The notes below the pieces were generated by a model. That model was given only the letters and a program-made list of their open reading frames with translations. It was not told the origin of the DNA and did no database searches. The translations under genes and the position numbers were made by a program. Shown here in pieces: positions 24,144 to 50,777 of a stretch of 62,628 nt of DNA. Origin of the DNA: Candidatus Dormiibacterota bacterium (GTDB taxonomy: Bacteria > Chloroflexota > Dormibacteria > DASZGP01); NCBI GenBank assembly GCA_036824145.1, contig DAITAT010000003.1, forward strand, positions 1 through 62,628, given 5' to 3'. Every line of letters starts with the position of its first letter. Position 1 is the first letter of the stretch.

Positions 24144-24225
24144 GTCGGCGTGGTGAAACCGGTAGACACGCCAGCTTTAGGAGCTGGTCCCGCAAGGGGT
24201 GGAGGTTCGAATCCTCTCGCCGACA
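24144..24225 (+). tRNA. tRNA-Leu (anticodon TAG), CCA not encoded
   Basis: GTCGGCG/CGCCGAC acceptor stem, D-loop GGTAGAC, CCAGC-TT-TAG-GA-GCTGG anticodon arm, long variable arm, GGTTCGAATCC. Confidence 0.95.
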
Positions 24226-24247
24226 TTTCTGACGCTACCGTCAGAAA
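24226..24247. promoter_or_regulatory. Inverted repeat/operator TTTCTGAC-GCTACC-GTCAGAAA plus extended -10 TGgTATCTT (24252-24260)
   Basis: Perfect 8-bp arms; could also act as a tRNA 3' hairpin. Confidence 0.55.
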
Positions 24248-24288
24248 ATCGTGGTATCTTGGGGCCACTGATTTCGCGGGAGGAAGAC

Positions 24289-33791: not shown

Positions 33792-34166
33792 GCGTGGCGA
33801 GTCGGCGAGGTGACCGCGGCGGGAGCAATCCCGTCGAGGAAAGTCCGAGCTCCTCAGAGCAGAGTGCCGGGTAATCCCCGGCGGGCGCGAGCCCAGGGAA
33901 AGTGCCACAGAAAATACACAGCCGCAGATCCAACTGCGGTAAAGGTGAAATGGTGGAGGTAAGAGCCCACCGGCGGCCGGGAGACCGGTCGGCCAGGTAA
34001 ACCCCACTTGGAGCAAGACCTGAAAGAGGGCGTTGAGGCTGCTCGTTCAGTCCTCGGGTAGGTCGCTGGAGGTGCCGGGTAACCGGCGCCGTAGATAGAT
34101 GGTCACCGCCTCGACGGCCGCAAGGCTCCGGGGCACAGAACTCGGCTTATTGCCGGGTCGCCACGC
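33792..34166 (+). ncRNA. rnpB: RNase P RNA (type A)
   Basis: GAGGAAAGTCC, AGTGCCACAGAAAA, GGTAAACCCC, GAGCAAG, AGATAGATGGTC, ACAGAACTCGGCTTA; P1 GCGTGGCGA/TCGCCACGC; TAGAAT -10 at 33779. Confidence 0.97.
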
Positions 34167-34329
34167 TAAATACAGTGCCGTTGGGGAGCGAGACCTGGGT
34201 CAGTCCAGGGAGAGAAGACGCCAGGAAGCGCCTGACTTCGATGTGCGCGGAGAAGCGGTTGGCCGGTCGATGCGGCCCAGACATGCCTCGCGTCCGGCAT
34301 CTCGGCCAAATAATCCCCACTCTGTTCCA

Positions 34330-34419
34330 CCCCAAGATATGGTCCTTGTGAGCACACTAACCACCAGATCTGGGGTTTTGGGTCCTGGAGCCCCGCGCCG
34401 CTGTCCCTAGATGTTGCGG
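34330..34419. promoter_or_regulatory. Three NrdR-box-like sites upstream of dcw promoter
   Basis: CCCCAAGATATGGTCC (34330), CCACCAGATCTGGGGT (34361), TCCCTAGATGTTGCGG (34404); spacing 31 and 43 bp. Confidence 0.6.
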
Positions 34420-34426
34420 ATTTGTA

Positions 34427-34455
34427 TTGACACCTGCATCCGCCGGTGCTACGGT
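34427..34455 (+). promoter_or_regulatory. dcw (mraZ) promoter
   Basis: TTGACA-17 bp-TACGGT with extended TG. Confidence 0.85.
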
Positions 34456-34465
34456 TTCCGGCGAA

Positions 34466-34547
34466 GTGGTAGCAGGTGGTGAAAAGTGGGGATTCTCCAA
34501 TCCCCCCAACGTCCCTCTCCGGATGAGTCCCCACTTTTCGCCCCTGC
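34466..34547 (+). promoter_or_regulatory. MraZ-binding repeats and their inverted copy (long leader hairpin)
   Basis: GTGG at 34466, 34476, 34486 (10-bp period); 34472-34495 pairs with 34525-34547. Confidence 0.8.
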
Positions 34548-34577
34548 GACTTACTCCACAAGAAGCGCAATGATCGA

Positions 34578-35015
34578 ATGTTTCTCGGCAAGTACTCTCG
34601 CACTCTCGACGCCAAAGGGCGGCTTGCTCTACCGGTCAAATTCCGGGAGCAGCTTCCGAGCGGCTCCGTGGTCACGATCTCACCCGAGGACTGCCTCCGG
34701 GTCTACGCGCCGACGGAGTGGGAGGAAGTGACGGAGCACCTCCGGGTCAGCGAGGCGACCAGCGAGACCGAGCGCAACCTCATCCGCCGGATGTTTGCCG
34801 AGGCAGCCGAGCTCGAGTTCGACGGCCAGGGCCGCGCCCTGATCCCGGCCACCCTCCGCGACCACGCCGGGATCGAGACCACCGCGATGGTCGTGGGCGT
34901 CAACAACGTTGTCGAGATCTGGAGTGATGGGCGCTGGCAGGCCCTCGAAGCGGCCACCACCAACTTCACCCAGCTCGCCGACGCGGTCGCCAAAAGCCGC
35001 AACGCCAGCACCTGA
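34578..35015 (+). CDS. mraZ: Transcriptional regulator MraZ
   Basis: MFLGKY..LDAKGRLALP, DGQGRALIP, VGVNNVVEIW. Confidence 0.96.
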   Translation: MFLGKYSRTLDAKGRLALPVKFREQLPSGSVVTISPEDCLRVYAPTEWEEVTEHLRVSEATSETERNLIRRMFAEAAELEFDGQGRALIPATLRDHAGIETTAMVVGVNNVVEIWSDGRWQALEAATTNFTQLADAVAKSRNAST

Positions 35016-36003
35016 GTCTTCCGGGCCACGGGGCCCGAAGTCACACGTCCCTGTACTTTTAGAAGAAGCAATACAGATCCTCCAGCCCACACCGGGTGCC
35101 GTCTTCTTCGACGGCACCTTCGGTGGGGGAGGGCACTCGCGCGAGATCCTCAAAAGGATCCTGCCGGGCGGCACGCTCCTGGCCATGGACCTCGATCCCG
35201 AGGCCGTCAGCCGGGCGGCGGCGCTGATCGCCGAGTTCGGCGATGCCTTTCATTTCGTGTCGGGGAACTTTGCCGATTCCAGCGACCCTATCGAGGCGCT
35301 GGGTAGGGGGAAGGCGCCGCTCGACGGCGCCTTCCTCGACCTCGGCCTCTCCTGGTTTCAGCTGAACGACCCGGAGCGCGGCTTCAGCTTTGCCGCCGAC
35401 GGTCCCCTCGACATGAGATTCGACCCGGAGCAGCCGTTGAGCGCGGCGCATCTCGTCAACACCTACCCCGAACGCCGCCTCCGCGAGCTCATCCGCGAGT
35501 ACGGCGAGGAGCCCTGGGCCGGGCCCATCGCCGCCGCCGTCGTCCGCCGCCGCCGCCGCCTCAGATTCTCCCGGACCCGGGAGCTGGCCGAGCTCATCGG
35601 CGGAGTCATCCCTCGAAGGCACTGGCCACGGCGCATCGACCCGGCCACCAAGACCTTCCAGGCGTTGCGCATCGAGGTCAACGACGAAATTGGATCACTG
35701 CGAAAGGGGCTGGAGGAGATCATCAGGCACCTGAAGCCAGGTGGCCGGTTGGGGGTCGTCGCCTTCCACTCCCTCGAGGACAAAGCAGCAAAGGATTTTC
35801 TCAACGTCGAAGCAAAGGATTGCATCTGTCCGCCCCAACAACCGGTGTGCACATGTGCCCACCAGGCAAGCGTCACCATCCATCCCCCCCATCCCCTAAG
35901 GCCGGGCAAGGACGAGATCGAGGCCAACCCTCGATCTCGCTCCGCCCGGCTGAGGGGGGCAGTCAAGCTCCCTCAGGAGTCTCAACCAACGACGCAGAAA
36001 TGA
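34927..36003 (+). CDS. rsmH: 16S rRNA m4C1402 methyltransferase; true start unresolved (see findings)
   Basis: HVPVLLEE, DGTFGGGGHS, DLGLSWFQL, DGPLDMR, ATKTFQALRIEVN, FHSLEDK, NPRSRSARLR. Confidence 0.93.
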   Translation: MGAGRPSKRPPPTSPSSPTRSPKAATPAPESSGPRGPKSHVPVLLEEAIQILQPTPGAVFFDGTFGGGGHSREILKRILPGGTLLAMDLDPEAVSRAAALIAEFGDAFHFVSGNFADSSDPIEALGRGKAPLDGAFLDLGLSWFQLNDPERGFSFAADGPLDMRFDPEQPLSAAHLVNTYPERRLRELIREYGEEPWAGPIAAAVVRRRRRLRFSRTRELAELIGGVIPRRHWPRRIDPATKTFQALRIEVNDEIGSLRKGLEEIIRHLKPGGRLGVVAFHSLEDKAAKDFLNVEAKDCICPPQQPVCTCAHQASVTIHPPHPLRPGKDEIEANPRSRSARLRGAVKLPQESQPTTQK

Positions 36004-36506
36004 TCGCTCTAAGAATGAATACCGCCGCTCACGGCCGGCATCTCGGCTCCTCTTTTGGAGCCGGGGTCCGGAAGTCTCGGGCCACTGCAGGTTCGGGACG
36101 CTCGGTCCGTGTCCGCCGCTCGCGCCCGGCGACCTTCAAGTGGATCGTGCTCTGGATCGTCACGGTCTCGGTTTTCGGCAGCGCCTACGTTGCCGAAACC
36201 GCGGCCGCCACCCAGGCCAGTTACCAGATTGCCACTCTCAAGCAGCAGCAGTCCGACCTGCATGTGCAGCAGCAGCAGAGTCGCTACCAGATCTCGCTGG
36301 CCACCTCTGCCGGCCAGATCGACGGCGACGCCGCCAAACTGGGCATGGTCCGGTCCAATCAATGGCATTACCTGCCCGGCTCGACCTCGCCGGTCGCCCT
36401 CGCCAAGCCCGACCCGCAGAGCAACGGCAACGCCACCCGATCGTGGCTGGACCAGCTGGCCCTGGCACTCGGCCGGCCCACCGAGGCGCAGGCCAAGGGT
36501 CGATGA
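36000..36506 (+). CDS. ftsL: FtsL-like cell division protein
   Basis: Basic cytoplasmic N-terminus, single TM, Gln-rich coiled coil, AAKLGM; position between rsmH and PBP. Confidence 0.75.
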   Translation: MIALRMNTAAHGRHLGSSFGAGVRKSRATAGSGRSVRVRRSRPATFKWIVLWIVTVSVFGSAYVAETAAATQASYQIATLKQQQSDLHVQQQQSRYQISLATSAGQIDGDAAKLGMVRSNQWHYLPGSTSPVALAKPDPQSNGNATRSWLDQLALALGRPTEAQAKGR

Positions 36507-36605
36507 GACCGATCAACGGGCCACCGGGCCGGCTGATCGCGTGAGGTGGCCGGGGATGGAAAAGGATGACGATGGATCATCCGCCAAAGGGAAGCGGGTG
36601 ACCCG

Positions 36606-38327
36606 ATGACACAGGACCGAGGTAGGCTCCGAGTTATCTGGCTGATGGGGATGGCCGCCGTGCTCGCAGCCGTGCTGCTGGGCAAGCTTGTGTACTGGCA
36701 GGTGGTCGAACACCAGAAGATCAGCCTGCTGGCCGCCAAACAACACCAGGTCACCTTCAAGCTGCCCTCGCAGCGGGGGAAGATCTTCGATCGCAGCGGC
36801 CAGCTGCTGGCGACCGACACCCCCGTCGCCAACGTCGTGGCTGATCCCTCGCTGATCCCCCGGGCGGCGCGCTCGCAGGTTGCCGGAAGCCTGGCGCCGC
36901 TGCTGGGGATGACCGCGACGGACATCCTCAAGCAACTCGAGATGCCCCTGAAGTTCGAGTACCTCAAACACAAGCTGTCCAGGGAAACCGCGGACAAGAT
37001 CGGCGCTCTCCACCTCGCCGGCATCGGACTCGAGGACGACTCGCGTCGCTCGTATCTTTCCAGCGTCGACCCCGCCGCCCCCACCGAGCCGCGCTCGCTG
37101 GCCGGCAACCTGCTCGGCTTCGTCAACGACGGGGGCTCCGGCCAGTACGGCCTGGAGCAGTACTACGACGGGCAGCTCAAGGGCCACGACGGCTACGAGT
37201 CAACGCTCAAGACGGGGACCAACGAGACCATCGTCCTGAGCGACGTCAAGAAGGTGCTGCCGCAGGACGGCACCAGCTTGCAGCTGGGGCTGGACAGCCA
37301 GGTCCAGTTCTTCGCCGAGAAGGCGCTTGCCGCTGGCGTCAAGAAGACGAGCGCGGAGTCTGGCTCGGTGATCATCATGGAGCCCAGCACCGGCAACATC
37401 ATCGCCTGGGCCGACTACCCCACCTTCGACGCCAACAACTTCGGCGGATCCGACGCCAAGCTCTTCACCGACCCCGCCGTCAGTAGCCTTTATGAGCCCG
37501 GGTCGGTGATGAAGGTTGTGACGCTTTCTGGTGGCCTCCAGAGCGGCGCGATCACCCCCGACTACACCTTCAACGAAACCGGCAGCGTCAATGTTGGTGG
37601 CTACACCATCCAGGACTGGGACCATAAGCCCCACGGCAACATCAGCATGACCCGCGTGCTCGAGCTCTCCCTCAACGCGGGGGCCGTCAAGGTCCAGCAG
37701 ATCGAGGGACCGGACAATTTCTACAAGTTCCTGGGCGCCTTTGGCATCGGCAGCTTGACCGGCATCGATGTCGCGGGCGAGGTGGCGCGGCCGCTCAAGC
37801 CGCTGCGGAACTACTACCCCTCCGAACTGGCCACCACCGCTTTCGGCCAGGGCGTTGCGGTGACCCCCATCGAGATGATCTCGGCGATCAACACCGTCGC
37901 CAACGGCGGCCGCTTCGTGCACCCCCGCGTGGTCACGTCGACAATCCTGGCTGACGGTTCGCGCAAGGAAGTCCCCCAGGACCTCGGCACCCAGGTGCTC
38001 GGAACCCAGGCCGAAAATGACATGCGCCAGATGATGATCAAAGTCGTCGAGCACGGCTCCGGCTGGACCACCAAGATGGACGGCTGGCAGAATCAGATCG
38101 CCGGCAAGACTGGCACCGCCAACGTCCCCGAGGGCGGCAAGTACACCGATAAAGTCATCGCTAGCTTTGTCGGCTTCATGCCCGCGTACAACCCGCGCTT
38201 CACGATGCTCGTGATCATGCGCAACCCAAAGGGCGACACGCTGGCCCAGGAGGGCACCTTCACAGCCGCGCCGGTGTGGAAGAGCATCGCCCAACAGATC
38301 CTGGTCCAGTGGCAGGTGACGCCATAG
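36606..38327 (+). CDS. ftsI: Class B penicillin-binding protein
   Basis: RGKIFDRSG, YEPGSVMK (SxxK), SLN (SxN), GKTGTA. Confidence 0.92.
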   Translation: MTQDRGRLRVIWLMGMAAVLAAVLLGKLVYWQVVEHQKISLLAAKQHQVTFKLPSQRGKIFDRSGQLLATDTPVANVVADPSLIPRAARSQVAGSLAPLLGMTATDILKQLEMPLKFEYLKHKLSRETADKIGALHLAGIGLEDDSRRSYLSSVDPAAPTEPRSLAGNLLGFVNDGGSGQYGLEQYYDGQLKGHDGYESTLKTGTNETIVLSDVKKVLPQDGTSLQLGLDSQVQFFAEKALAAGVKKTSAESGSVIIMEPSTGNIIAWADYPTFDANNFGGSDAKLFTDPAVSSLYEPGSVMKVVTLSGGLQSGAITPDYTFNETGSVNVGGYTIQDWDHKPHGNISMTRVLELSLNAGAVKVQQIEGPDNFYKFLGAFGIGSLTGIDVAGEVARPLKPLRNYYPSELATTAFGQGVAVTPIEMISAINTVANGGRFVHPRVVTSTILADGSRKEVPQDLGTQVLGTQAENDMRQMMIKVVEHGSGWTTKMDGWQNQIAGKTGTANVPEGGKYTDKVIASFVGFMPAYNPRFTMLVIMRNPKGDTLAQEGTFTAAPVWKSIAQQILVQWQVTP

Positions 38328-38338
38328 GCGATGCCGGC

Positions 38339-39712
38339 ATGAGCTTCCGACTCTTCGAGCTGGCCGAGGCGACCGGCGGCCGGCTGATCGACGCTGACGC
38401 CGACCTCGCCCTCGACCGGCTGGTGATCGACTCCCGCCAGGCGACCCCGGGCTCCCTCTTCGTGGCCCTGGTCGGTGAGACCACCGACGGCCACCGCTTC
38501 CTGGCCGATGCTGTCGAGGCGGGCACCTCGGCGGTGCTCTGTCAGTTCGCGCCGCCGGAGCTCTCGGTGCCGCGGGTCGAGGTCGACGACACCCGCGAGG
38601 CCCTCGTCAGTTTCACCCGCTACCATCTGCGGCGGCAGGGCTGCACCGTCGTCGGGGTCACCGGCAGCGTGGGCAAGACCAGCACCAAGGAGATGGTGGC
38701 GGCGGTGCTTGCCCGGCGATTCGAGGTCCTCAAGGCCGAAGGCAACCTGAACACGTACACAGGTCTGCCGATGACGGTGGCCGGCCTCGAGCCACGCCAC
38801 CAGGTCTTGGTGGCCGAGTACGCGATGTCGGCGATCGGTGAGATCGCCTTACTTGCCCGGATGGCGCCGCCGGATGTCGCCGTCGTGCTCAACGTCGGGC
38901 TTTCCCATGTCGGTCTGCTCGGTGACATCGAGGCCGTCAGCCGCGCCAAGCGGGAGCTTGTCGAGGCGCTCGGGCCTGAAGGCACCGCCATCCTCAACGC
39001 CGACGACCCCAGGGTCATGGCGATGGCGCTGGCCAGTGCGGGCCGGGTGGTGACCTTCGGCTACGGGAATACCCAAAAGCATGTCGATGTGCACGCCGAA
39101 AACATCACCCTGCGAGGCCTTGAGGGCAGTGTCTTCACGCTGGCGCTACCCACCGACGAGCGAGTGCAGGTCGAGCTGAGCATCCCTGGGGTCCACGCCG
39201 TCAGCAACGCGTTGGCGGCGGCCGCGGCGGGCCACGTCCTCGGCGTCGCCACCGCGGACATCGCCGCCGCGCTCAGCGGCGTCGGCGCGCTTGGCGGTCG
39301 CGGTGTTCTTCGCCCCGGGCGGCTGGGATCGACGATCATCGACGACGCGTACAACGCCAGCCCTAGCTCGGTGGCGGCAGCGCTTCAGGTGCTCCTTGGC
39401 GAGACCGGCCGGCCCCGGATCGCCGTCCTTGGCGAGATGCTTGAGCTCGGGGAGAAGGCGGCCGAAGCCCACCAAAAGATCGGCCGCCAGGCTGCGCGCA
39501 GCGACCTGCTGGTGGCCCTCGGTGAGCACGCCGCCGATATCGTCGAGGGCGCCACCGAGGCCGGCCTTCGCGTCGATCGCGCCATCCTGGTGACCAGCCC
39601 CGAAGAGGCTGTCGCCGCGGTCGAGCCTCACCTCAAGGGCGCCGTGGTGCTGGTCAAGGCGTCCAGGGGGGTCGCCCTGGAGCAGGTCGTCGATCGCCTG
39701 GCGGAACCGTGA
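38339..39712 (+). CDS. murF: UDP-MurNAc-tripeptide--D-Ala-D-Ala ligase
   Basis: IDSR, DGHRF, GVTGSVGKTSTKE, DDAYNASP, LGEMLELG, VKASRG. Confidence 0.93.
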   Translation: MSFRLFELAEATGGRLIDADADLALDRLVIDSRQATPGSLFVALVGETTDGHRFLADAVEAGTSAVLCQFAPPELSVPRVEVDDTREALVSFTRYHLRRQGCTVVGVTGSVGKTSTKEMVAAVLARRFEVLKAEGNLNTYTGLPMTVAGLEPRHQVLVAEYAMSAIGEIALLARMAPPDVAVVLNVGLSHVGLLGDIEAVSRAKRELVEALGPEGTAILNADDPRVMAMALASAGRVVTFGYGNTQKHVDVHAENITLRGLEGSVFTLALPTDERVQVELSIPGVHAVSNALAAAAAGHVLGVATADIAAALSGVGALGGRGVLRPGRLGSTIIDDAYNASPSSVAAALQVLLGETGRPRIAVLGEMLELGEKAAEAHQKIGRQAARSDLLVALGEHAADIVEGATEAGLRVDRAILVTSPEEAVAAVEPHLKGAVVLVKASRGVALEQVVDRLAEP

Positions 39713-40788
39713 TCGCTGTCCTTTGGGTGGTCGCCACCATCACCTCACCCCAGGTCCTCACCAAGGCCTCGCCGCACCCGGCCTCCTCACCGGCGGTGCG
39801 CCACGCTCCGCTCTTCGATCACCTGCCTCAGCCCTGGCCGCCGGCGGTGGCGCTGCTGCTCCCCCTGGTTGTCGGGGTGCTGCTGATGCCGTGGGCGATC
39901 GGCCTGCTCAGCCGCCACGGCATGGGCCAGCGGATCCGTGAGGAGGGCCCCCAGTCGCACCTGGCCAAGGGCGGCACGCCCACCGCGGGCGGCCTGGTTG
40001 TGATCGCCCTGATCCTGCTTACGCTGGTCTTCATCGATCGATCGCGGTCGCTGCTGCCGGTGCTGGCCGCGCTCGGTCTCGGCGCCTGCCTGGGCCTGGT
40101 CGACGACCTGGTCATGGTTCGGTCCCGTGCCTGGACTCGCGGCCTGCTGGCGCGGCAGAAGATCGTGGTCCAGCTGGGGATCGGGCTGGCCATCGGGGCC
40201 TGGTTCTGGGCGCTGGGGATGGACCACCAGGTGGTGCCCCTGCTCGGCACCTGGAAGATGGGCTTCCTGATCGTTCCGGTGGCGGCGCTGGCGCTGGTGG
40301 CCGCATCCAACGCCTTCAACCTGACCGACGGTAGCGACGGCCTGGCCCCCGGCGTCATCCTGCTGGTGGCGCTGGTATTGGCGCTGATGCTGAAGGGCAA
40401 CGGCCACCAGGTTGCCCTGGTACGGCTGCTGCTGGCCGTGGTCGGCGCCATGGTTGCTTTCCTGGTCTACAACGTGCCCCCGGCGCGGGTGTTCCTCGGC
40501 GGGGTCGGCAGTGAGGGGCTGGGGATGCTGCTGGCGGCGGCCGCCATCGCCGGTGGCCTGGTCTGGTACCTGCCGCTTCTGGCCCTGGTGCCCGTCCTCG
40601 AGACGCTGTCGGTGATCGTCCAGGTCTTCAGCTTCAAGACCAGGGGCAAGCGAGTCTTCCGGATGTCGCCGCTGCACCACCACTTCCAGCTCGGGGGCTG
40701 GAGCGAGTGGATGGTGGCACTCTGCGCCTGGGCCGCGACCAGCCTCGCCGGCACCCTGTCGCTGATCCTGAGCCGGAGGCCGGCATGA
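39709..40788 (+). CDS. mraY: Phospho-N-acetylmuramoyl-pentapeptide transferase
   Basis: HLAKGGTPTAGG, VDD, NAFNLTDGSDGL, VFLGGVGS, FRMSPLHHHF. Confidence 0.92.
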   Translation: MIAVLWVVATITSPQVLTKASPHPASSPAVRHAPLFDHLPQPWPPAVALLLPLVVGVLLMPWAIGLLSRHGMGQRIREEGPQSHLAKGGTPTAGGLVVIALILLTLVFIDRSRSLLPVLAALGLGACLGLVDDLVMVRSRAWTRGLLARQKIVVQLGIGLAIGAWFWALGMDHQVVPLLGTWKMGFLIVPVAALALVAASNAFNLTDGSDGLAPGVILLVALVLALMLKGNGHQVALVRLLLAVVGAMVAFLVYNVPPARVFLGGVGSEGLGMLLAAAAIAGGLVWYLPLLALVPVLETLSVIVQVFSFKTRGKRVFRMSPLHHHFQLGGWSEWMVALCAWAATSLAGTLSLILSRRPA

Positions 40789-41975
40789 GAAACCAGGCCA
40801 CCAGCATCGACAAGTGGCTCCTGGCCAGCGTCCTGGTGCTGTGCGGCTTCGGCCTGATCATGGTCTTCAGCAGCTCCGAGGTGCAGGGCTACATCGACTA
40901 CGACAATTCCAGCTACTACTTCCAGCACCAGATCCTCTGGCTGTTGGTGGGTTGCGCCGGCGGCCTTTTGGCCCTGGGGCTGGACTATCACCGGCTGCGG
41001 GCGCTGGCGCCGATCGCCGCCGCCGTGATAGTGGCGCTGCTGGTGCTCGTCCTGATCCCCCATATCGGCGTCGCCCGCAACGGCGCCCGCCGCTGGTTCG
41101 GTTTCGGCGCCTTCACCATCCAACCCGCGGAGATCGCCAAGGTGGTGGTGATCATTTACCTGGCGCGCTGGCTGGAGAAGTCGAGCGATCGCGTCGGCAC
41201 CTTCCGCGAGGGTCTGGTGCCGTTCATGCTGATGCTCGGACTGATCGTCTGCCTGGTGCTACTCGAAAAAGACCTGGGCACCGCGATGGTGCTGACGATC
41301 ATCGCGATCGCGATGTTCCTGGTCGCCGGCGCCAGGTGGTGGCACGTCGCTGGCGCCGTGCTGGTGGCGTCGGGTGCGATCGGGCTCCTGATCCGCCTCG
41401 AGCCCTACCGCTTCAGCCGCATGTCGGCGTTCCTGAACCCCTGGGCTGACAGCCTCAACACCGGCTTCCAGTCGGTGCAGTCGGTACTGGCGCTGGGATC
41501 CGGCGGGCTATTCGGGGTGGGGCTGGGCCAGAGCATCCAGAAGTACCAGTGGCTGCCCGAAGCTCACACCGATTTCATCTTCGCTATCATCGGCGAGGAG
41601 GTGGGGCTGATCGGAACCCTGTTTGTCCTCACTCTCTTCTGCCTCATCGCGTACCGGGGCTACCGGGCCGCGATGCGAGCCCCAGACACCTTCGGATTGC
41701 TGCTTGCAACGGGAATTACGACCTGGCTGATCTTCCAGGCCTTCGTCAACATGGCGGCGGTCACTCTCACCCTCCCCACCACGGGCATTCCGCTGCCGTT
41801 CGTCAGCTTCGGCGGCTCTTCGCTGTCGGTTTCGCTGACCGCGGTGGGACTCCTCCTCAACATCTCAGCCCAGGGCGTGAAGCCGGCTGTGGGTCGCCGT
41901 GCGGGTATTGATATCGGGCGGCGGCACCGGGGGGCACATATTCCCGGCCCTCGCCGTAGCCCAAGCCCTGGCTGA
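40785..41975 (+). CDS. ftsW: SEDS peptidoglycan polymerase FtsW
   Basis: NGARRW, IQPAEIAK, EKDLGTA, LPEAHTDFIFA, PTTGIPLPFVSFGGSS. Confidence 0.94.
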   Translation: MRNQATSIDKWLLASVLVLCGFGLIMVFSSSEVQGYIDYDNSSYYFQHQILWLLVGCAGGLLALGLDYHRLRALAPIAAAVIVALLVLVLIPHIGVARNGARRWFGFGAFTIQPAEIAKVVVIIYLARWLEKSSDRVGTFREGLVPFMLMLGLIVCLVLLEKDLGTAMVLTIIAIAMFLVAGARWWHVAGAVLVASGAIGLLIRLEPYRFSRMSAFLNPWADSLNTGFQSVQSVLALGSGGLFGVGLGQSIQKYQWLPEAHTDFIFAIIGEEVGLIGTLFVLTLFCLIAYRGYRAAMRAPDTFGLLLATGITTWLIFQAFVNMAAVTLTLPTTGIPLPFVSFGGSSLSVSLTAVGLLLNISAQGVKPAVGRRAGIDIGRRHRGAHIPGPRRSPSPG

Positions 41976-42990
41976 GCTCGACCCCGGGGTCCAGCTTCTT
42001 TACGTCGGCCGGGAGGGCGGCATGGAGGAACGGATCGTGCCCGAGCGCGGGATCGAAATCGAAACCCTGCGCGTGCGCGGCGTCCAACCCGAGGCCTGGC
42101 GCAACCTGGCCCTGGCCTTCTCGGTTCCGGCCGCGGTGCTGAGCGCATCGCGCCTGGTGGGACGGTTCCAGCCCGACGTAGTGTTCGGTACCGGGGGCTA
42201 CGTCGTCGCCCCCGTGGGGATCGCCGCCAGCCTGCGCCGGCGGCCGCTGGTGCTGCAGCTGCCCGACGCCGTGCCCGGTCGCACCATCCGGACGCTGGCG
42301 CCGCGAGCCGAGACCGTGTGCCTGGAGTTCGAGTCCAGCGCCGCGCAGCTCAAGGGCCGGACCCAGGTCACCGGCACGCCCGTGCGGCCCGAGTTCGCCG
42401 CCATCGGCCGGGCCCGCCGAGCCCAGTCCCGCGCGGTCGTCGACGGCGGCTTCCGGCTGGTCGTTTTCGGTGGTAGCCAGGGAGCGCATCGCCTCAACAC
42501 CGCCGTGGCCGAAGGCCTTAAGGCGCTGCTGGCCGTGCCCGGCCTGGCGGTCCACCACCTCAGCGGCGAGCAGGACCACGACCAGCTACGGGCGATGCGC
42601 TCCGGGCTGGACGACGACCTCCGTGATCGGTACACCGTGGAACCGTTCAGCGACGCCATCGCCGCTTTGATGGAATCAGCGGACCTCATCCTCGCTCGCG
42701 CCGGCGGCAGCGCCATCGCGGAGATGACCTCGGTGGGGGCGCCGATGGTGCTGGTCCCCTATCCGCACGCCGGCGCCCACCAACGTTTCAACGCCGAGCC
42801 CGTGGCGAAGGCGGGCGCCGCCGTCGTGGTTCCCGACGAAGAGCTCAGCGGCGTGCGCCTGGTGGAGACGGTGCGGCGGCTGATAACGGACCCCGACCGC
42901 CTCCGGCGGATGGCCCAAGCCAGCCTCGACTTCGGCCGGCCCGACGCCGCCGAGGCGGTCGCCCGGATTGTCGTAGAGGCGGCGCGGTGA
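41899..42990 (+). CDS. murG: Lipid I GlcNAc transferase
   Basis: GGGTGGHIFPA, GTGGYV, GTPVRPEF, FGGSQGA, RAGGS; 77-nt overlap with ftsW. Confidence 0.95.
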   Translation: MRVLISGGGTGGHIFPALAVAQALAELDPGVQLLYVGREGGMEERIVPERGIEIETLRVRGVQPEAWRNLALAFSVPAAVLSASRLVGRFQPDVVFGTGGYVVAPVGIAASLRRRPLVLQLPDAVPGRTIRTLAPRAETVCLEFESSAAQLKGRTQVTGTPVRPEFAAIGRARRAQSRAVVDGGFRLVVFGGSQGAHRLNTAVAEGLKALLAVPGLAVHHLSGEQDHDQLRAMRSGLDDDLRDRYTVEPFSDAIAALMESADLILARAGGSAIAEMTSVGAPMVLVPYPHAGAHQRFNAEPVAKAGAAVVVPDEELSGVRLVETVRRLITDPDRLRRMAQASLDFGRPDAAEAVARIVVEAAR

Positions 42991-44321
42991 AGGTCCACCT
43001 GGTCGGCATCGGCGGCGCCGGCATGAGCGCGCTGGCCCATCTCTACCTCGAGCGGGGGGATGCCGTGAGCGGCTCCGACTCCGCCGCGTCCGATGTCACC
43101 GAGGCGCTGACGAAGGCCGGGGCGCGGGTGGCGCTGAGCCACGCCGTGGAGAACCTTGGCGACGCCCACGTGGTGATCGTCTCGACCGCCGTCGGGGAGG
43201 AGAACCCGGAGTTGCTGGCGGCTCGCCGGCGCGGCCTGCCAGTTCTCTCCCGCGGCCGGGCCGCGGCGCAGCTCTGCGCCAGGCGCCGCGTCGTCGCGGT
43301 CGCCGGGACCCACGGCAAGACCACCACCACCACGCTGGTTGCCGCTGCCCTGGATCCAACCGACCCACTCGTCATCAGCGGGGGGCGTCTGCCCGGCAGC
43401 ATCTACAACTCCAGGCCGGGCGACGGCGCATTCGCCGTCATCGAAGCCGACGAAAGCGACGGATCTTTCCTCGAGCTGACACCCGAGGTCGCAGTGGTCA
43501 CCAACGTCGAGGCCGACCACCTCGACCGCTATGCCGACATCGGCTCGATTCGCGAGGCCTTCGAGCGCTTCGCCGACCGGGTCACCTCCACCCTCGTCGG
43601 GTGCGTCGATGACCCCGGCGCACGCGCGCTTGTCGCCGCCACGCCCGGCGCGGTTGTCGGCTACGGCTTCGGAGACGCCGAGGTGCGCGGGTCGGGCTAC
43701 GTTTCCCACGAGGGAGGCTGCGCCTTCACCGTCGACTCGGCCTGGGGGCACGCCCGGGTTCGCTTGGCGATGCCCGGGCGGCACAACGCCAGCAACGCGC
43801 TCGGCGCCATCGCTGCCGGCCTGGTCCTGAACCGCCGGCTGACCGAGCTGGTCAGCCGGCTGGCCACCGCCGAGCTCCCCGGCCGCCGCCTGGAACTGGT
43901 CGCGGAGTTCGGCGGCGCCCGCGTATACGACGACTACGGCCACCACCCCACCGAGGTTGCCGCCACCATGAGCGCGGCGCGTGAGCTCTGCTCCGGCCGC
44001 CTCATCTGCGCCTTCCAGCCGCATCGATACAGCCGCCTCAGCGCGATGCTGGAAGAATTCGGGGCGTGTTTCGCTGCCGCCGACGAGGTCCTCCTCCTGC
44101 CCGTATACGCCGCCGGCGAGGCACCCATCGACGGCGCCACCAGCGCCGCCCTGGCCCAGTCGATCCACCGGCATGACCCCGGCCGCCGGGTCGAGGTCCT
44201 CGATTCGCTCGAACTGTTGCCGGACGAGCTCCGGCGCCGCCTGCACAACGGTGACGTCGCCGTCTGCATGGGAGCCGGCGACATCTACCGCGTCAGCCGC
44301 CGCCTGGCGGAGGCCGTGTGA
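42987..44321 (+). CDS. murC: UDP-MurNAc--L-alanine ligase
   Basis: GIGGAGMS, AGTHGKTTTT, EADESDGSF, DDYGHHPTE, FQPHRYSR, MGAGDI. Confidence 0.95.
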   Translation: MKVHLVGIGGAGMSALAHLYLERGDAVSGSDSAASDVTEALTKAGARVALSHAVENLGDAHVVIVSTAVGEENPELLAARRRGLPVLSRGRAAAQLCARRRVVAVAGTHGKTTTTTLVAAALDPTDPLVISGGRLPGSIYNSRPGDGAFAVIEADESDGSFLELTPEVAVVTNVEADHLDRYADIGSIREAFERFADRVTSTLVGCVDDPGARALVAATPGAVVGYGFGDAEVRGSGYVSHEGGCAFTVDSAWGHARVRLAMPGRHNASNALGAIAAGLVLNRRLTELVSRLATAELPGRRLELVAEFGGARVYDDYGHHPTEVAATMSAARELCSGRLICAFQPHRYSRLSAMLEEFGACFAAADEVLLLPVYAAGEAPIDGATSAALAQSIHRHDPGRRVEVLDSLELLPDELRRRLHNGDVAVCMGAGDIYRVSRRLAEAV

Positions 44322-45259
44322 CAAGCGCTGAGGCGATCGCCTGGCTGGCGAACCTCGGTGCGGTGAGGCGCGACCATCCGCTGGCGCCGCACACCACCTA
44401 TCGGATTGGCGGTCCTGCGGACTGGTACCTGGAGGCGTTCAACGGCCTCGAAATCCTGGCCGCGGGCTGCCGTGAGCGAGGCATTCCGCTGACTTTGCTG
44501 GGCAATGGCAGCAACCTGCTAATTGCCGATGAGGGCGTGGAAGGGCTGGTGGTACGACCGGTCGACACTTCGATCGAGGTGCGTGGCGATGTCATCGAGG
44601 CCGCCGCGGCGGCTCGGATGGTGAAGGTCGCTCAGGCGGCCGAGAAGGCGGGACTCACGGGCATGGAATGGGCTCTTGGCATTCCCGGCACCGTGGGCGG
44701 CTCGGTCCACAACAACGCCGGTTGCTTCGGGTCCGAGATCGCCTCCACGGTCTTCAAAGTGCATGGCGTCACTGGTGAGGGCGAGAAAACGCTGTGGACA
44801 ACGGAGCAATGCGCCTTCGCCTACCGGACTTCGGCGTTGCGCGCGGGCTCACTCGCCGGGGGCGTCGTCACCGCGGGCGAGTTTCAGCTCCGGGACGGGG
44901 ACCCCGCCGCCATCCGGTCGCAGATGGAGGAGGTCCAGCAGGCCCGCAAGGCTACCCAGCCGGTCACCGGACGCAGCACCGGCAGCGTTTTCAAGAACCC
45001 GCCAGGTGATTTTGCCGGGCGCCTTATCGAGGAGGCCGGCCTCAGAGGTCGCAAGATCGGGGGTGCCATGGTCAGCAACGAGCACGCCAACTTCATCATC
45101 AACGCCGGTGGCGCGAGGGCAGCAGAGGTGGCCGTCCTGGTGCGGCTGGTCCAGGCGGCGATCGAGGACCGATTCGGCATCCGTCTCGAGCCCGAGATCG
45201 AGGTCCTGGGCCGTTGGCCCGACGGCGTCCCCGAGGCGTTCCGGGTGGAAGCGGCGTGA
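44318..45259 (+). CDS. murB: UDP-N-acetylenolpyruvylglucosamine reductase
   Basis: TYRIGGPA, GNGSNLL, GIPGTVGG, FAYRTS, GSVFKNP, HANFIIN. Confidence 0.95.
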   Translation: MTSAEAIAWLANLGAVRRDHPLAPHTTYRIGGPADWYLEAFNGLEILAAGCRERGIPLTLLGNGSNLLIADEGVEGLVVRPVDTSIEVRGDVIEAAAAARMVKVAQAAEKAGLTGMEWALGIPGTVGGSVHNNAGCFGSEIASTVFKVHGVTGEGEKTLWTTEQCAFAYRTSALRAGSLAGGVVTAGEFQLRDGDPAAIRSQMEEVQQARKATQPVTGRSTGSVFKNPPGDFAGRLIEEAGLRGRKIGGAMVSNEHANFIINAGGARAAEVAVLVRLVQAAIEDRFGIRLEPEIEVLGRWPDGVPEAFRVEAA

Positions 45260-46185
45260 AAATCGCCGTCCTCAGCGGTGGTGTCAGCGGCGAGCGCGAG
45301 ATCTCGCTGCTCTCCGGGCGCTACGTGCTCAAGACGCTGCTCGAGCTGGGTCACGACGCCCGGCTTGTCGATTTCGGCCCCCGCGCCTCGGAGGAGCTCC
45401 ATGTTCTCGCGCCGGAGCTCGTCTTTCCGACCCTCCATGGGCCGCTCGGAGAGGACGGCACCGCCGCCGCCGTGCTGGAGCTGCTGGGCATGCCCTACGT
45501 CGGCTCGGGCGTGCTGGCGGGGGCGCTGGCGATGAACAAGGCCGCCGCCAAGCGGGTGATGATCGCCGAGGGCCTGCCCACCCCGCCCTTCGAGCTGATC
45601 TCCAGCCTCGCCGACCCCAGGGCGCAGGCCGGGGAATTGGTCGGCCGCCTGGGTCTGCCGCTGGCGATCAAGCCCAACTCTGGCGGCTCCAGCCTCGGTT
45701 TTACACTCGCCGGCGACGAGGACGCCGTCCTCGACGGCATCGAGGCTGCGCTGGCGGCTTCGGGTCCCGATCGCACCGCGCTGGTCGAGGTGGCCAAGAC
45801 CGGCGTCGAGGTCACCATCGGGGTGCTCGGGGTGGAGCGACCGGAAGCCCTGCCGACGCTCGAGATCACGTGGCGCGACGGCGATTACGACTTCGAGGCC
45901 AAGTACACCGCCGGGCTCAGCCATCACATCATCCCGGCGCGCATCCCCGAGGAGCAGCAGCGCCAGGTCGCCGAGTTGGCGGTGCGGGCGCACAACCTGA
46001 TCGGCGCTCGTGGCCTATCTCGGGTCGATACCATCTGCGAACCGACGGGGGCGATTTGGATCCTCGAGGTCAACACCATGCCGGGTCTGACCGAACTCAG
46101 CCTCTTCCCCGACGCAGCCCGCGCCGCCGGCCTCGAGTTCCCTGCCCTGATCAGAGGCTTGATCGACGACGCCACCCCGCGGTGA
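45256..46185 (+). CDS. ddl: D-alanine--D-alanine ligase
   Basis: GGVSGEREIS, LHGPLGEDG, MNKAAAK, KPNSGGSS, YDFEAKY, EVNTMPGLT. Confidence 0.95.
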   Translation: MKIAVLSGGVSGEREISLLSGRYVLKTLLELGHDARLVDFGPRASEELHVLAPELVFPTLHGPLGEDGTAAAVLELLGMPYVGSGVLAGALAMNKAAAKRVMIAEGLPTPPFELISSLADPRAQAGELVGRLGLPLAIKPNSGGSSLGFTLAGDEDAVLDGIEAALAASGPDRTALVEVAKTGVEVTIGVLGVERPEALPTLEITWRDGDYDFEAKYTAGLSHHIIPARIPEEQQRQVAELAVRAHNLIGARGLSRVDTICEPTGAIWILEVNTMPGLTELSLFPDAARAAGLEFPALIRGLIDDATPR

Positions 46186-47117
46186 GCCGAAACCGCGGCC
46201 GCCGCCCCCTGCGCGACCTGCACCCGCGGATATCCCGCCGCCGGGGCACCTCGGTGCGCCTGCGACGCCGGACTCGGGCGGCCACGGAACCTGCCCGGCG
46301 CAGCTCCGACCGCAACCTCGGAGGGCTGGTCCGTCCCGCCACCCGGCTCCTGGTCCTGGTCGCGCAGCTGGCCTTGTTGGTGGCCCTGATCAAGAGCCCT
46401 GTCCTGGCCGCCCACCAGGTGCTGATCACGGGCAACCGGCAGCTGTCGCGCCAGCAGGTCCTGGCCCGCGCCGGGCTCCGCGGCGACCCGTCGATGCTAC
46501 TTCTCTCCACCGACCAGGCCGTGGCCCAGCTGAAGTTGAACGCGTACGTGCGCTCGGTCTCGATCAGAACCACACTGCCCGACCAGGTAGAGGTCGAGCT
46601 GCTGGAGTGGGAGCCGCTGGCAGTCGTTGGGCGCGGCGGCGGTTTCTACCTTCTGAACGCCCAGGGTGGGATCCTCGGCACCGCCCTCGACGCCCGCACC
46701 GGGATTGGGGCGGGGCAGCCCCACGTCGCCATCACCTGGGCCGCCCCGGGTCTGATGCGCTTGGGCCAGACCGCCCTCCCCGGACGGCTGCTCCAGGACC
46801 TCGACAAGATGTCGAGCGCCTTCCCGACGGCATACGGCCTGACGATCTCTGGTTTCGCGCTGGACGCCAACCAGAAACTCACCGCGAATACGACCGCCGG
46901 GCCACGTATCCTCTTTGGCCAGATGGCAACCGATGAGCAGATCGACAGCCTCGATGCCAAGTTGGGGGCGCTCAGGTCGCTTCGGGCCAAGATCGACCTG
47001 GCCGACTCCAAGCTGGACTACGTCGACCTGGAAAACCCCGCGGCTGTGACCACACGGGCGATTCCCAGCCCCACGCCCAGCGTTGCCCCATCGCCATCTC
47101 CGACGAAGAAACCTTAG
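46182..47117 (+). CDS. ftsQ: FtsQ/DivIB family cell division protein
   Basis: TM then POTRA-like (ITGNRQLS..PDQVEV), C-terminal YVDL; dcw position; GTGA overlap. Confidence 0.85.
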   Translation: MSRNRGRRPLRDLHPRISRRRGTSVRLRRRTRAATEPARRSSDRNLGGLVRPATRLLVLVAQLALLVALIKSPVLAAHQVLITGNRQLSRQQVLARAGLRGDPSMLLLSTDQAVAQLKLNAYVRSVSIRTTLPDQVEVELLEWEPLAVVGRGGGFYLLNAQGGILGTALDARTGIGAGQPHVAITWAAPGLMRLGQTALPGRLLQDLDKMSSAFPTAYGLTISGFALDANQKLTANTTAGPRILFGQMATDEQIDSLDAKLGALRSLRAKIDLADSKLDYVDLENPAAVTTRAIPSPTPSVAPSPSPTKKP

Positions 47118-47130
47118 TGAGCTCCCTCAC

Positions 47131-47463
47131 TTGATCCAGGTCCTCTTCGTTCTGCTGGCCGCGGTCCTGGGGGTGATCGTGGGCATCAAGACCAACGTGG
47201 AGATCCCGGTCACCTACTCGCGTTATACCGCCGTGATGCTGCTGGCGGCGTTGGATTCGATTTTCGGCGCCCTCAAGGCATCCCTGAACGGACGCTATGA
47301 GAACGCCGTCTTTCTCTCGGGGTTGATCACCAACTCGGCGGTGGCCGGGGCGCTCACGTTCCTCGGAGACAAACTCGGCGTCGAGCTCTATTTCGCCGCC
47401 ATCTTTGCCTTCGGCGTGCGGATTTTCCAGAACATCGCTGTGATCCGCAGGCAGCTCCTTTAA
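47131..47463 (+). CDS. sbp: Small basic protein (Sbp/DUF1290)
   Basis: YSRYTAVMLLAALDSIFG, LGDKLGVELY, FGVRIFQN. Confidence 0.88.
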   Translation: MIQVLFVLLAAVLGVIVGIKTNVEIPVTYSRYTAVMLLAALDSIFGALKASLNGRYENAVFLSGLITNSAVAGALTFLGDKLGVELYFAAIFAFGVRIFQNIAVIRRQLL

Positions 47464-47486
47464 TGGTGTGCCTTCTGGTGGCCCCA

Positions 47487-47492
47487 TAGAAT
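47487..47492 (+). promoter_or_regulatory. Internal -10 (TAGAAT) upstream of ftsA
   Basis: TAGAAT inside CCCAT-AGA-ATGGG palindrome, 27 nt before the ftsA GTG. Confidence 0.5.
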
Positions 47493-47518
47493 GGGCGCGA
47501 CGGTGAGGGTGAAACAGC

Positions 47519-48760
47519 GTGGCTAAGAACGGCCGGATCGTCGGCCTGGATATCGGCAGCACCAAGGTTTGCTGCGTCATCGCCACACCCTCGGAGAGCG
47601 GCGAGGGCGACCTCGTCATCTCGGGCGTGGGCGAGGCCCCCTCCGAGGGGCTCCGCAAGGGCGTCATCGTCAACCTCGAGAAGACGGTCAAGGCGATCGA
47701 GACCGCAGTTCGCGCCGCCGAGCGGATGTCCGGGCACCGGGTCGACGCCGTTTTCGCAGGGCTGGCCGGCACGCACATGAAGTCCAACAACAGTCGCGGC
47801 GTGGTGGCGGTGGCCGGGGGCGACCGCGAGATCACCCAGCGCGATGTCGACCGCGTCATCGAGGCCGCCCGCAGCGTCGCCATCCCCAACGACTACGAGG
47901 TCATCCACGTCATGCCCCGCGGCTTCGTCGTCGACGGTCAGGAAGGCGTCCGCGACGCCGTCGGCATGTCGGGGGCGCGGCTCGAGGTCGAGACCCACAT
48001 CATTTCCGGCTCCACCACCGCGGTCCAGAACGTGGTCAAGTCGGTGCATTCGGCAGGCTTCAACGTCGAGGACCTGGTGATCCAGTCGCTGGCCAGCGCC
48101 GAGGCGGTTCTCAACTACAACGAGATCGAGATGGGCGTCGCCGTGGCCGACATCGGCGGCGGCACCACCGACCTTGCCGTTTTCTCGGACGGCAGCGTCA
48201 TCTATACCGCGGTGTTGCCCGTGGGTGGCAACCACGTCACCAACGACCTCGCCATCGGGCTGCGCACAAGCCTCACCGACGCCGAGTCGGCCAAGATCAA
48301 CTATGGTCACTCGCTGCCGCAGCTAATCCCGCGGGACGAGATCATCGACATCCAGCCGATCGGCGCCGAAAAGGTCCAGGGAGTGCCGCGTGTGTATGTC
48401 GCAGAGATCATCGAGCCGCGTGCCCGCGAGATCCTGGAAATGATCAAGGCAGAGATCGAGCGCAGCGGCCAGGCGGGGCTCCTTCCCGGCGGCCTCGTCC
48501 TCACCGGTGGTGGCGCCAAGCTCCTCGGGCTGCCGGAGATGGCGGCCGAGACCCTCGACCTCCCGGTGCGGGTTGGGGTTCCCATCAATGTGCGCGGAAT
48601 GGCCGACAAGGTGGCGGGCCCCTCTTTCGCGACCGCGGTGGGGCTGATAAAGTGGGGCGCGAAGCTCACGGCGCCGGCCCATGCATCTAACGGGGCAGCT
48701 GCAGTAAGCCTGCAGGATGCATACCAGAAGACCTTGAGATGGTTACGTGACTTTTTCTGA
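47519..48760 (+). CDS. ftsA: Cell division protein FtsA
   Basis: GLDIGSTKV, GLRKGVIVN, DIGGGTT, GGNHVTND, LTGGGA, C-terminal amphipathic LRWLRDFF. Confidence 0.96.
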   Translation: MAKNGRIVGLDIGSTKVCCVIATPSESGEGDLVISGVGEAPSEGLRKGVIVNLEKTVKAIETAVRAAERMSGHRVDAVFAGLAGTHMKSNNSRGVVAVAGGDREITQRDVDRVIEAARSVAIPNDYEVIHVMPRGFVVDGQEGVRDAVGMSGARLEVETHIISGSTTAVQNVVKSVHSAGFNVEDLVIQSLASAEAVLNYNEIEMGVAVADIGGGTTDLAVFSDGSVIYTAVLPVGGNHVTNDLAIGLRTSLTDAESAKINYGHSLPQLIPRDEIIDIQPIGAEKVQGVPRVYVAEIIEPRAREILEMIKAEIERSGQAGLLPGGLVLTGGGAKLLGLPEMAAETLDLPVRVGVPINVRGMADKVAGPSFATAVGLIKWGAKLTAPAHASNGAAAVSLQDAYQKTLRWLRDFF

Positions 48761-48947
48761 TTTCGACAAGCAGATGAGGCTCCGAGGATTGGGAGGCCAG
48801 GACCAGTCCGCAAGCGATCCGGATGCGGGGGACACAGCCCCGCCCGCTGTTGATCTGGATACGGCTGACACCGCAGAGACGGGGCAGCCAGCGAAACGAC
48901 CGCAGTCGGCAGGGACGTCGGACTACGGTTCGGGCAAGGAGGACCCA

Positions 48948-50054
48948 ATGGCTAGGGAAATAGACAGGACCATCGACGGCAGCGCCAAGATCAAGGTCGT
49001 CGGTATAGGCGGTGCGGGAGGCAACGCCGTCAACCGGATGATCCGGTCCAAACTTCGTGGCGTCGAGTTCGTCGCCGTCAACACCGACTTGCAGGCCCTC
49101 CACGGTTCCGAGGCGCACGTCAAGCTCAACATCGGCAAGAAGCTGACCCGCGGCCTGGGCTCGGGTGGCGATCCCAACAAGGGCCAGGAGGCCGCCGAGG
49201 AATCGCGTCAGGAGCTCACCGAGCTGGTCAAGGACTGCGACATGGTCTTCATCACCGCCGGCTTGGGCGGCGGCACCGGCACCGGGGCGGCCCCGGTGGT
49301 GGCCGAGATCGCCCGCCAGGCTGGCGCGCTGACAATCGGCGTCGTCACCAAACCCTTCGCATTTGAGGGTGCCCGCCGCAAGCAGGTCGCCGAGGATGGG
49401 CTGCAGAGCCTTCACGACAAGGTCGACACCCTGATCGTCGTTCCCAACCAGCGCCTGCTTGAGGTGGTCGACAAGAAGACCCCGCTGGCCGACTCGTTCA
49501 AGATCGCCGACGACGTCCTTCGCCAGGGCGTCCAGGGCATCTCCGACCTGATCGTCTTCCCGGGCCTGATCAACCTCGACTTTGCCGACGTCAAGACGAT
49601 CATGGCCGGCCAGGGCGCGGCCCTCATGGGCATCGGCTTCGGCAGTGGCGACACCCGTGCCGCCGACGCCGCCAAGAACGCCATCTCCAGCCCGCTGCTG
49701 GAGACCACCATCGACGGCGCCCGCGGCATCCTCCTCAACATCACCGGTGGTCCCGATCTCACCCTGGTCGAGGTCAACGAGGCCGCCAACCTGGTCCGCG
49801 AGGCCGCCAACGCCCACGACGACAACCTCATCTTCGGCACCGTCATCGACGAGCGCCTACAGGGCGAGGTCAAGGTCACGGTGGTGGCGACAGGCTTCAC
49901 CAGCGAGCGGGTCGGCCAGATGGACGCCTTCGAAGCGTCCGACAGCGCACGCGCTTACGCCCCCGCGACGAGGGAGAAGGAGGGCGTCCCGGCCACCCCG
50001 ACGTTCGACAGCGAAGACCTCGACATCCCCGCTTTCCTGCGCAACCGCCGGTAG
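48948..50054 (+). CDS. ftsZ: Cell division protein FtsZ
   Basis: [37 protein letters not shown]-terminal LDIPAFLR; AAGGAGG RBS. Confidence 0.98.
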
Positions 50055-50242: not shown

Positions 50243-50289
50243 TTACAACAATTAGTGCTACGATCCGGCCGGAGCACAACATGTTGTCC
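50243..50289 (+). promoter_or_regulatory. nrdR promoter flanked by two NrdR boxes
   Basis: TTACAACAATTAGTGC (50243) and GCACAACATGTTGTCC (50274), 31 bp apart, around extended -10 TGcTACGAT (50256-50264). Confidence 0.75.
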
Positions 50290-50312: not shown

Positions 50313-50777
50313 TTGAGGTGCCCATATTGTGGTCACGAAGAGCTCAAGGTTGTCGACTCACGCGATTCCGACACCGGTGAGGCGATCCGGCGCCGCCGCC
50401 AATGCCTGGAGTGCAATAAGCGCTTCACCACCTACGAGCGGGTCGAGAACATCCCCTTCTACGTTATCAAGAAGGACGGCCGCCGCGAGGACTTCAACCG
50501 CCAGAAGCTCTTCGACGGCCTGATGACGGCCTGCGAGAAACGCGACATCTCACCCAACACCATCGAGGCCGCGATCGATGAGATCGAGTCCGAGCTGCGG
50601 TCGACTGGCAAGATGGAGATCCCGTCCCGAGAGATCGGCGAGCTGGTGATGGCGAAGCTGCGCAAGCTCGACGACGTCGCTTACGTCCGCTTCGCCTCGG
50701 TCTATCGCCAGTTCCGCGACCTCACAGAGGTCAAACGCGAGATCGACCAACTGCTCAGCAAGCAGGGCATCAAGTAG
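50313..50777 (+). CDS. nrdR: Transcriptional repressor NrdR
   Basis: [31 protein letters not shown] cone, YVRFASVY. Confidence 0.97.

Follow-up and report, generated by a model that had tools for sequence, protein, structure and literature searches.

Conserved candidate NrdR boxes upstream of the mraZ promoter of the Dormibacterota division cluster

Introduction

Why would boxes of the NrdR type stand directly in front of a cell-division promoter? This question is raised by three 16-mers that precede the predicted mraZ promoter (Pmra) of the gene cluster for division and the cell wall (dcw) in a genome of the uncultured Candidatus Dormiibacterota, analyzed here over a stretch of 62,628 nucleotides (the window). 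About three quarters of bacterial genomes have NrdR, which the literature treats as a repressor specific to ribonucleotide reductase (RNR). In its canonical mode it is DNA-bound while it carries dATP plus ATP, and represses. The NrdR proteins of E. coli and S. coelicolor bind heterologous boxes.

An NrdR box is a 16-mer of partly palindromic sequence with conserved positions C4, A6, A8, T9, T11 and G13, and 8 bp separating C4 from G13; binding depends critically on C4/G13 and A6/T11, two boxes are required, and an A/T content between C4 and G13 of at least about 63% is needed as an empirical lower limit (PMC13584703). Four NrdR proteins bind box pairs with spacers of 14–17 bp (usually 15–16) or 24–27 bp (PMC12051234). 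A literature search for papers linking NrdR to mraZ or the dcw cluster found none. The original prediction for this locus held that NrdR directly gates the division operon, as a dNTP-pool checkpoint.

Methods

Criteria for a box were taken from the independent experimental literature and not from the sites themselves, and the position weight matrix (PWM) was trained solely on ten validated boxes, from E. coli and S. coelicolor. The six-position criterion and the PWM replaced the classical consensus, whose AT content is too high for a genome of 68% GC; in the window, ACACWATATATWGTGT had no match with up to three mismatches. The in-lineage motif reference was built from nrdR promoters only.

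Relatives were collected by MraZ searches of genome, metagenome and protein collections, one MAG being Candidatus Dormibacter sp. The genome and metagenome searches returned Dormibacterota alone, plus one Clostridiales match (L016). This low-GC sequence was set aside as irrelevant, the PWM background being invalid for it. The comparison set comprised 12 other Dormibacterota lineages (L011–L015, L017, L026, L028 and L030–L033), with MraZ identity ranging from 78% down to 44%.

Results

The three candidate boxes lie in the 413-bp intergenic interval between rnpB and mraZ (Table 1). The dcw cluster downstream is complete and spans about 16 kb, with mraZ at its head and ftsZ (48747–50054) at its end, followed in order by nrdR, pgeF, yggS and ileS. 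Further downstream, past the division cluster, a gene for a DksA/TraR-type zinc-finger protein (55524–55955) separates ileS from lspA. In most of the genomes compared, rnpB adjoins mraZ; the neighborhood is recombinogenic and the mraZ regulatory block is intact.

Table 1. Annotated features around the mraZ and nrdR promoters, in window coordinates.
Feature	Position	Strand	Basis and remarks
rnpB (RNase P RNA, bacterial type A)	33798..34164	+	Rfam RF00010, 266.9 bits; neighbor, outside the element
Spacer, variable and apparently dispensable	34165..34314	.	Deletion and alignment data
Two inverted MraZ-type repeats, GTGGAA-caga-GTGGGG	34315..34331	-	GTGG-N6-GTGG match at 34317–34330; share 2 bp with box 1
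NrdR box 1 (candidate), cccCaAgATaTgGtcc	34330..34345	.	6/6 conserved positions; 75% AT between C4 and G13; PWM 12.7 bits, rank 3
NrdR box 2 (candidate), ccaCcAgATcTgGggt	34361..34376	.	6/6 positions; 50% AT; PWM 13.0 bits, rank 2
NrdR box 3 (candidate), tccCtAgATgTtGcgg	34404..34419	.	6/6 positions; 75% AT; PWM 12.6 bits, rank 4
Pmra core promoter (predicted)	34427..34455	+	-35 TTGACA 34427–34432; 17-bp spacer; extended -10 TGCTACGGT (TGcTACGGT) 34447–34455
Three direct MraZ-type repeats, GTGGTA-gcag-GTGGTG-aaaa-GTGGGG	34466..34491	+	Pattern match; invariant in the three-box clade
Leader hairpin	34465..34555	+	Folding; third MraZ repeat GAAAAGTGGGGA pairs with inverted copy TCCCCACTTTTC (34529–34540)
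mraZ	34578-35015	+	TIGR00242/PF02381
dcw cluster: mraZ, rsmH, ftsL-like, ftsI, murE, mraY, ftsW, murG, murC, murB, ddl, ftsQ, DUF1290, ftsA, ftsZ	34578..50054	+	Pfam and NCBIfam
NrdR operator (candidate) at the nrdR promoter	50243..50289	.	Box A ttaCaAcAAtTaGtgc 50243–50258; box B gcaCaAcATgTtGtcc 50274–50289; 15-bp spacer
nrdR	50313..50777	+	PF22811 (Zn_ribbon_NrdR) and PF03477 (ATP-cone); TIGR00244, 210.9 bits

Re-reading of the window confirmed the positions and sequences originally given for the three 16-mers and for the -35 and -10 elements. All six NrdR-box positions (C4, A6, A8, T9, T11, G13) are present in each mraZ box, the cores being CAAGATATGG at 34333–34342 (box 1), CCAGATCTGG at 34364–34373 (box 2) and CTAGATGTTG at 34407–34416 (box 3). 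Centers are 31 and 43 bp apart, giving spacers of 15 bp (boxes 1 and 2) and 27 bp (boxes 2 and 3), the latter shortened to 26 bp in some strains (L003, L008–L010). These values fit both published ranges. Box 3 ends 7 bp before TTGACA, and all boxes are upstream of the -35 element, with centers at about -124.5, -93.5 and -50.5 for boxes 1 to 3 relative to the predicted transcription start. Box 2 of the window is GC-rich between C4 and G13: its AT content falls under the published limit and equals that of the Synt A5C/A12G mutant, which retains binding, 5–10 times weaker. Counted from the aligned sequences, AT content at this box is 63–88% in most relatives.

All 62,613 16-mer positions of the window were scored with the PWM. 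The five highest scores belonged to nrdR box B (16.4 bits), mraZ boxes 2, 1 and 3, and nrdR box A (12.0 bits). The next match scored 10.8 bits, and the training boxes themselves ranged from 12.1 to 22.1 bits. The mraZ sites thus score clearly above background, at 12.6–13.0 bits, against a matrix derived from E. coli and S. coelicolor boxes. The pattern proposed in the original prediction, CNAGATNTNG, matched 15 times in the window against 4.7 expected. The literature-defined core CNANATNTNG occurred at 13 sites, among which the only pairs with an allowed spacer were the two before mraZ. Of 300 simulated composition-matched windows, 0.3% contained at least one such pair and none contained two. 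A relaxed pair scan of 297 kb of Dormibacterota DNA placed every pair at mraZ or nrdR, and the same scan of 3.6 Mb of simulated sequence returned zero pairs.

Conservation of the boxes was then compared across lineages. Ten contigs with identical MraZ differ little and are too close for footprinting; among them, variation in box 1 is confined to the unconstrained position 10. For the 12 other lineages, the best PWM matches of each 4–20 kb locus lie upstream of mraZ, and footprinting over 13 lineages found the boxes conserved at fixed distances to the mraZ -35 element. In the three-box clade the gaps to the conserved TTGAC are about 81, 50 and 7–9 bp. The most distant lineages have two boxes, a distal one 47 bp and a proximal one 7–8 bp from TTGAC, with spacers of 23–24 bp, of which the 23 bp in L032 is just beyond the tested range. 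Box 1 is kept in 10 lineages, with C4, A8, T9, T11 and G13 at 100%, and box 2 is found in 13 of 13. The linker between these two boxes is invariably 15 bp while its sequence diverges. The place of box 3, 7–9 bp from TTGAC, is constant in all lineages; the left half of this proximal box is degenerate in L012, L015, L017 and L030. A box of L030, ACACAACATCTAGGGG, equals the published synthetic consensus box but for one position. Over 36 boxes in the 13 lineages, agreement at the NrdR-critical positions amounts to 204 of 216, and positions 7 and 10 are essentially free. As read from these alignments, such position-specific constraint reproduces the NrdR logo, a pattern not expected from chance or from an unrelated palindrome.

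The sequence on the far side of the boxes behaves differently from lineage to lineage. Within the spacer, 34226–34300 is removed by a 75-bp deletion in L002 and L007, strains whose MraZ is identical to that of the window, and in the public MAG L004 an assembly gap (Ns) covers the spacer together with boxes 1 and 2. The spacer cannot be aligned among more distant relatives, and an Rfam scan of 34100–34620 at E≤1, spacer included, gave no real family match. The rnpB gene, on the plus strand at 33798–34164 in the window, is on the opposite strand in L012 (9239–9590) and L013 (5653–6007) and is missing upstream of mraZ in L017 and L030–L032, where the boxes are still present. Genes upstream of mraZ vary by lineage, and each box stays at a constant distance from the -35 element.

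One genome of the set, L031 (GCA_035632635.1), is labelled Candidatus Limnocylindrales (Chloroflexota), and is nearly identical to the Dormibacter-type L030 and L032 in gene order and in the block at the mraZ promoter. Two readings follow: a questionable label or binning, or an element that extends across a phylum boundary.

The same motif occurs at the promoter of nrdR. The window encodes a cognate NrdR with Zn-ribbon, ATP-cone and DNA-contact residues (D15 and R17 are conserved), whose best PDB matches are the E. coli and S. coelicolor NrdR structures. The original prediction of a box in front of nrdR was correct as to its presence and wrong as to its number: there are two, ttaCAACAATTAGtgc (50243–50258) and gcaCAACATGTTGtcc (50274–50289), 31 bp apart. 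The pair spans the extended -10 (TGCTACGAT, 50256–50264) and the predicted start, which for these candidate sites is the classical repressive arrangement. Autoregulation of nrdR is documented (PMC9110341), and by analogy the pair has the typical autoregulation pattern. Equivalent pairs with spacers of 15–17 bp precede nrdR in L018, L020, L022, L034 and L035, so that the pair is present in six lineages whether nrdR follows ftsZ or not. A PWM built from the 12 in-lineage nrdR-promoter boxes (consensus ncACaAcATgTtGTgn) finds the mraZ sites both in the window and in its relatives.

In the window, nrdR has ftsZ on one side and pgeF-yggS on the other, within the extended dcw/ylm region. Where it lies away from the dcw cluster (L018, L034, L035), yggS (Ala_racemase_N) still directly follows it, making nrdR-yggS a conserved pair. 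No nrd gene adjoins nrdR in the six neighborhoods inspected. The window was likewise predicted to hold no nrd gene, and this stands. Its sole RNR-like open reading frame (24289–25209), about 10 kb from the mraZ boxes, has a weak PF00268 match and scores 134 bits to NF006200, below cut-off. Assignment as nrdB was rejected: the product is R2-like ligand-binding-oxidase-like (R2lox-like) and not an RNR subunit, no large-subunit gene lies beside it, and only a half-site is found upstream. A tRNA gene precedes this frame (24144–25209), and the short stretch upstream of the frame has the 10-mer CCCCAAGATA (minus strand) in common with box 1, as a half-site only.

We next considered the promoter that the boxes precede. 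Its TTGAC is invariant and its -10 nearly so in all relatives, and the start was placed near 34462 by inference. A consensus promoter scanner did not call Pmra; TACGGT matches three of six -10 positions, where the scanner minimum is four. A by-eye search of both strands for an alternative promoter over boxes 1 and 2 found no conserved -35/-10 pair. The assignment of Pmra follows from the conserved TTGACA-17-TGcTACGGT arrangement and from the invariant MraZ repeats directly 3' of it, and sequence comparison thus supports a real promoter. In B. subtilis, the MraZ-binding repeats are three copies of GTGG[A/T]G with 4-nt spacers (bioRxiv 10.1101/2022.02.09.479790). The repeats at 34466–34491 share this format, with three GTGGNN units and 4-nt spacers beside the promoter of an mraZ-led dcw cluster.

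Additional MraZ-type elements surround the array. Of the inverted upstream repeats, the first is kept in 9 of 9 three-box relatives and the second in 6 of 9; the second is degenerate in the window's own subclade. The CCCCAC of this region is invariant in the alignment. The NrdR array and core promoter are in this way bracketed by MraZ-type repeat sets about 150 bp apart. Folding of the leader (34462–34590) gave a minimum free energy of -53 kcal/mol (z = -5.2). Both arms of the hairpin are invariant in relatives and its loop length differs; the element may act as a structured RNA or as a fourth MraZ site in inverted orientation.

Discussion

Sequence analysis strongly supports the sites upstream of mraZ as boxes of the NrdR type that selection maintains at the dcw promoter. 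This identity follows from an independently trained PWM, the spacing of the boxes, phylum-wide position-specific conservation and the presence of the same motif at the nrdR promoter. To this extent the original prediction holds, and its claim that NrdR gates the operon is too strong. From the sequence comparisons, we infer that the three 16-mers probably act as a functional operator on Pmra for the organism's own NrdR. The box family is known; what appears to be new is mraZ as a phylum-wide target and an unusual arrangement of three boxes upstream of the promoter.

How such an operator might work can be proposed from characterized NrdR systems. Loaded with dATP and ATP, an NrdR tetramer would occupy two boxes at once, preferably boxes 1 and 2 with their 15-bp spacer, or alternatively boxes 2 and 3, whose 26–27 bp add one helical turn. 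Each occupied box would be sharply bent, and bending beside the -35 element, 7 bp from box 3, may alter access of RNA polymerase. Pmra would then most likely be repressed, in parallel with nrdR and presumably the RNR operons, and transcription of division and cell-wall genes would respond to the nucleotide signal that also controls dNTP synthesis. Repression by the dATP- and ATP-loaded tetramer is favored by analogy with every characterized two-box site. Under repression, the dcw genes would be co-expressed with RNR while replication drains dATP, and both would be shut off when dNTPs accumulate, a behavior that suits dormancy. The earlier notion of a checkpoint on division presupposes which way NrdR acts. 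Canonical repression by NrdR carrying dATP and ATP would silence dcw at high dNTP levels, the reverse of that checkpoint; activation would produce it, with division proceeding only when dNTPs suffice.

The position of the boxes upstream of the -35 element is unusual for simple steric repression and unlike the layout at nrdR. It is an argument for a reading in which NrdR binds the mraZ boxes and acts positively or architecturally, either by recruiting RNA polymerase from about -50 and -94 or by looping, where two 90-degree bends would shape a loop between the repeats at 34315–34331 and 34466–34491 and so alter MraZ repression. For a positive role there is a precedent in topA of P. aeruginosa, the only validated non-RNR target, which is activated by NrdR (PMC4409342), and the logic of dividing only with sufficient dNTPs is sensible. 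Conserved MraZ-type repeats also flank the array on both sides. Against these points, topA is a single-box site and every characterized two-box site is repressive, and the window's subclade has the second of the upstream repeats in degenerate form. Taking recruitment and looping jointly, we regard a positive or architectural role as rather unlikely. It is also unlikely, and decidedly speculative, that the region forms a composite dcw switch in which a dATP/ATP-sensing NrdR tetramer sits between the MraZ repeat sets and its bends aid or oppose an MraZ loop. Such a switch would combine the dNTP pool with MraZ autoregulation, and NrdR, no longer specific to RNR, would couple replication to division.

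Other readings dispute the identity of the sites or their target. That another regulator, or an UP-like element, accounts for palindromes merely resembling NrdR boxes is very unlikely. The right half of box 3 (ATnTTGCG) is indeed invariant where the left half is lost, and box 2 of the window is GC-rich, but the PWM ranks, the linker of 15 bp and the position-by-position conservation all point specifically to NrdR, and an identical motif and arrangement lie over the promoter of nrdR itself. It is still less probable that the boxes control rnpB or a divergent unannotated transcript from the spacer in place of mraZ. Such a target is suggested by rnpB as the upstream neighbor in the window, by a 34165–34314 stretch without an Rfam match, and by the intergenic region that L031 shares with a divergent dodecin gene; yet rnpB is inverted or absent in several lineages and the spacer is variable or deleted, while the spacing between the boxes and the mraZ -35 is constant. 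The minus-strand transcript once proposed for the unexplained stretch at 34170–34310 is unlikely for the same reason, the stretch being variable and partly deleted between strains. Least credible is that the resemblance is coincidental or that the boxes are decaying remains of an nrd operon since lost. The motif was noticed post hoc in one scanned window, a circumstance that would favor coincidence, but two pairs arose in none of the simulated windows, and conservation across 13 lineages with constraint on the NrdR-critical bases effectively refutes both. A relic, also put forward originally, would sit poorly with box-to-promoter distances that stay fixed whatever lies upstream. The preferred reading remains an NrdR operator on Pmra, with repression as the favored outcome.

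This reading suggests a direct, previously undescribed link from the dNTP pool to division genes. If true, it would be the first indication of a dATP/ATP sensor acting directly on cell-division genes and would offer a simple transcriptional route joining DNA-precursor supply, replication and division, possibly of special relevance to slow-growing, dormancy-prone soil and permafrost bacteria. Genome-wide surveys of NrdR boxes should look beyond the regions upstream of RNR genes.

The candidate operators resemble those of S. coelicolor nrdAB and nrdRJ and of E. coli nrdAB, nrdHIEF and nrdDG, with the same 16-bp boxes in pairs and a 15–16 bp linker. High-GC variants known from RNR promoters (ACACAACATCTGGGGG and GCACAAGATGTA) closely resemble the mraZ boxes, and the pair at the nrdR promoter of the window includes an 'AA-middle' box like box 2 of S. 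coelicolor nrdRJ. Unlike operators at RNR promoters, the mraZ boxes lie upstream of the -35 element and not over the -35, -10 and start site, and the gene downstream of them is mraZ and not part of an RNR operon, a difference of context and not of box identity. For boxes wholly upstream of the core promoter there is a precedent in S. pneumoniae nrdHEF, with 24/26-bp spacers and the -35 and -10 downstream of box 2. More than two boxes, as at mraZ, occur at T. maritima nrdJ (three boxes) and L. monocytogenes nrdAB (a distal and a proximal pair). In contrast to these sites at RNR operons, the mraZ array combines short (15 bp) and long (26–27 bp) spacers.

Outside RNR genes, the closest likeness is P. 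aeruginosa topA, where, as at mraZ, an NrdR box precedes a gene tied to DNA replication and the cell cycle; topA has a single box and is activated, whereas mraZ has two or three correctly spaced boxes conserved across the phylum. The promoter itself shares with the MraZ-autoregulated Pmra of E. coli, B. subtilis and Mycoplasma the three direct GTGG-type repeats with a 10-bp period, and differs from known Pmra by the added upstream inverted repeats, the inverted copy in the leader and the NrdR array inserted between the repeat sets. A functional analogy can be drawn with SOS coupling through LexA-controlled inhibitors of the SulA/YneA class, in which a sensor of DNA metabolism also acts on division. 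There a division inhibitor is induced after DNA damage, whereas at mraZ the promoter of the division and cell-wall genes would itself be the direct target of a sensor of the nucleotide pool.
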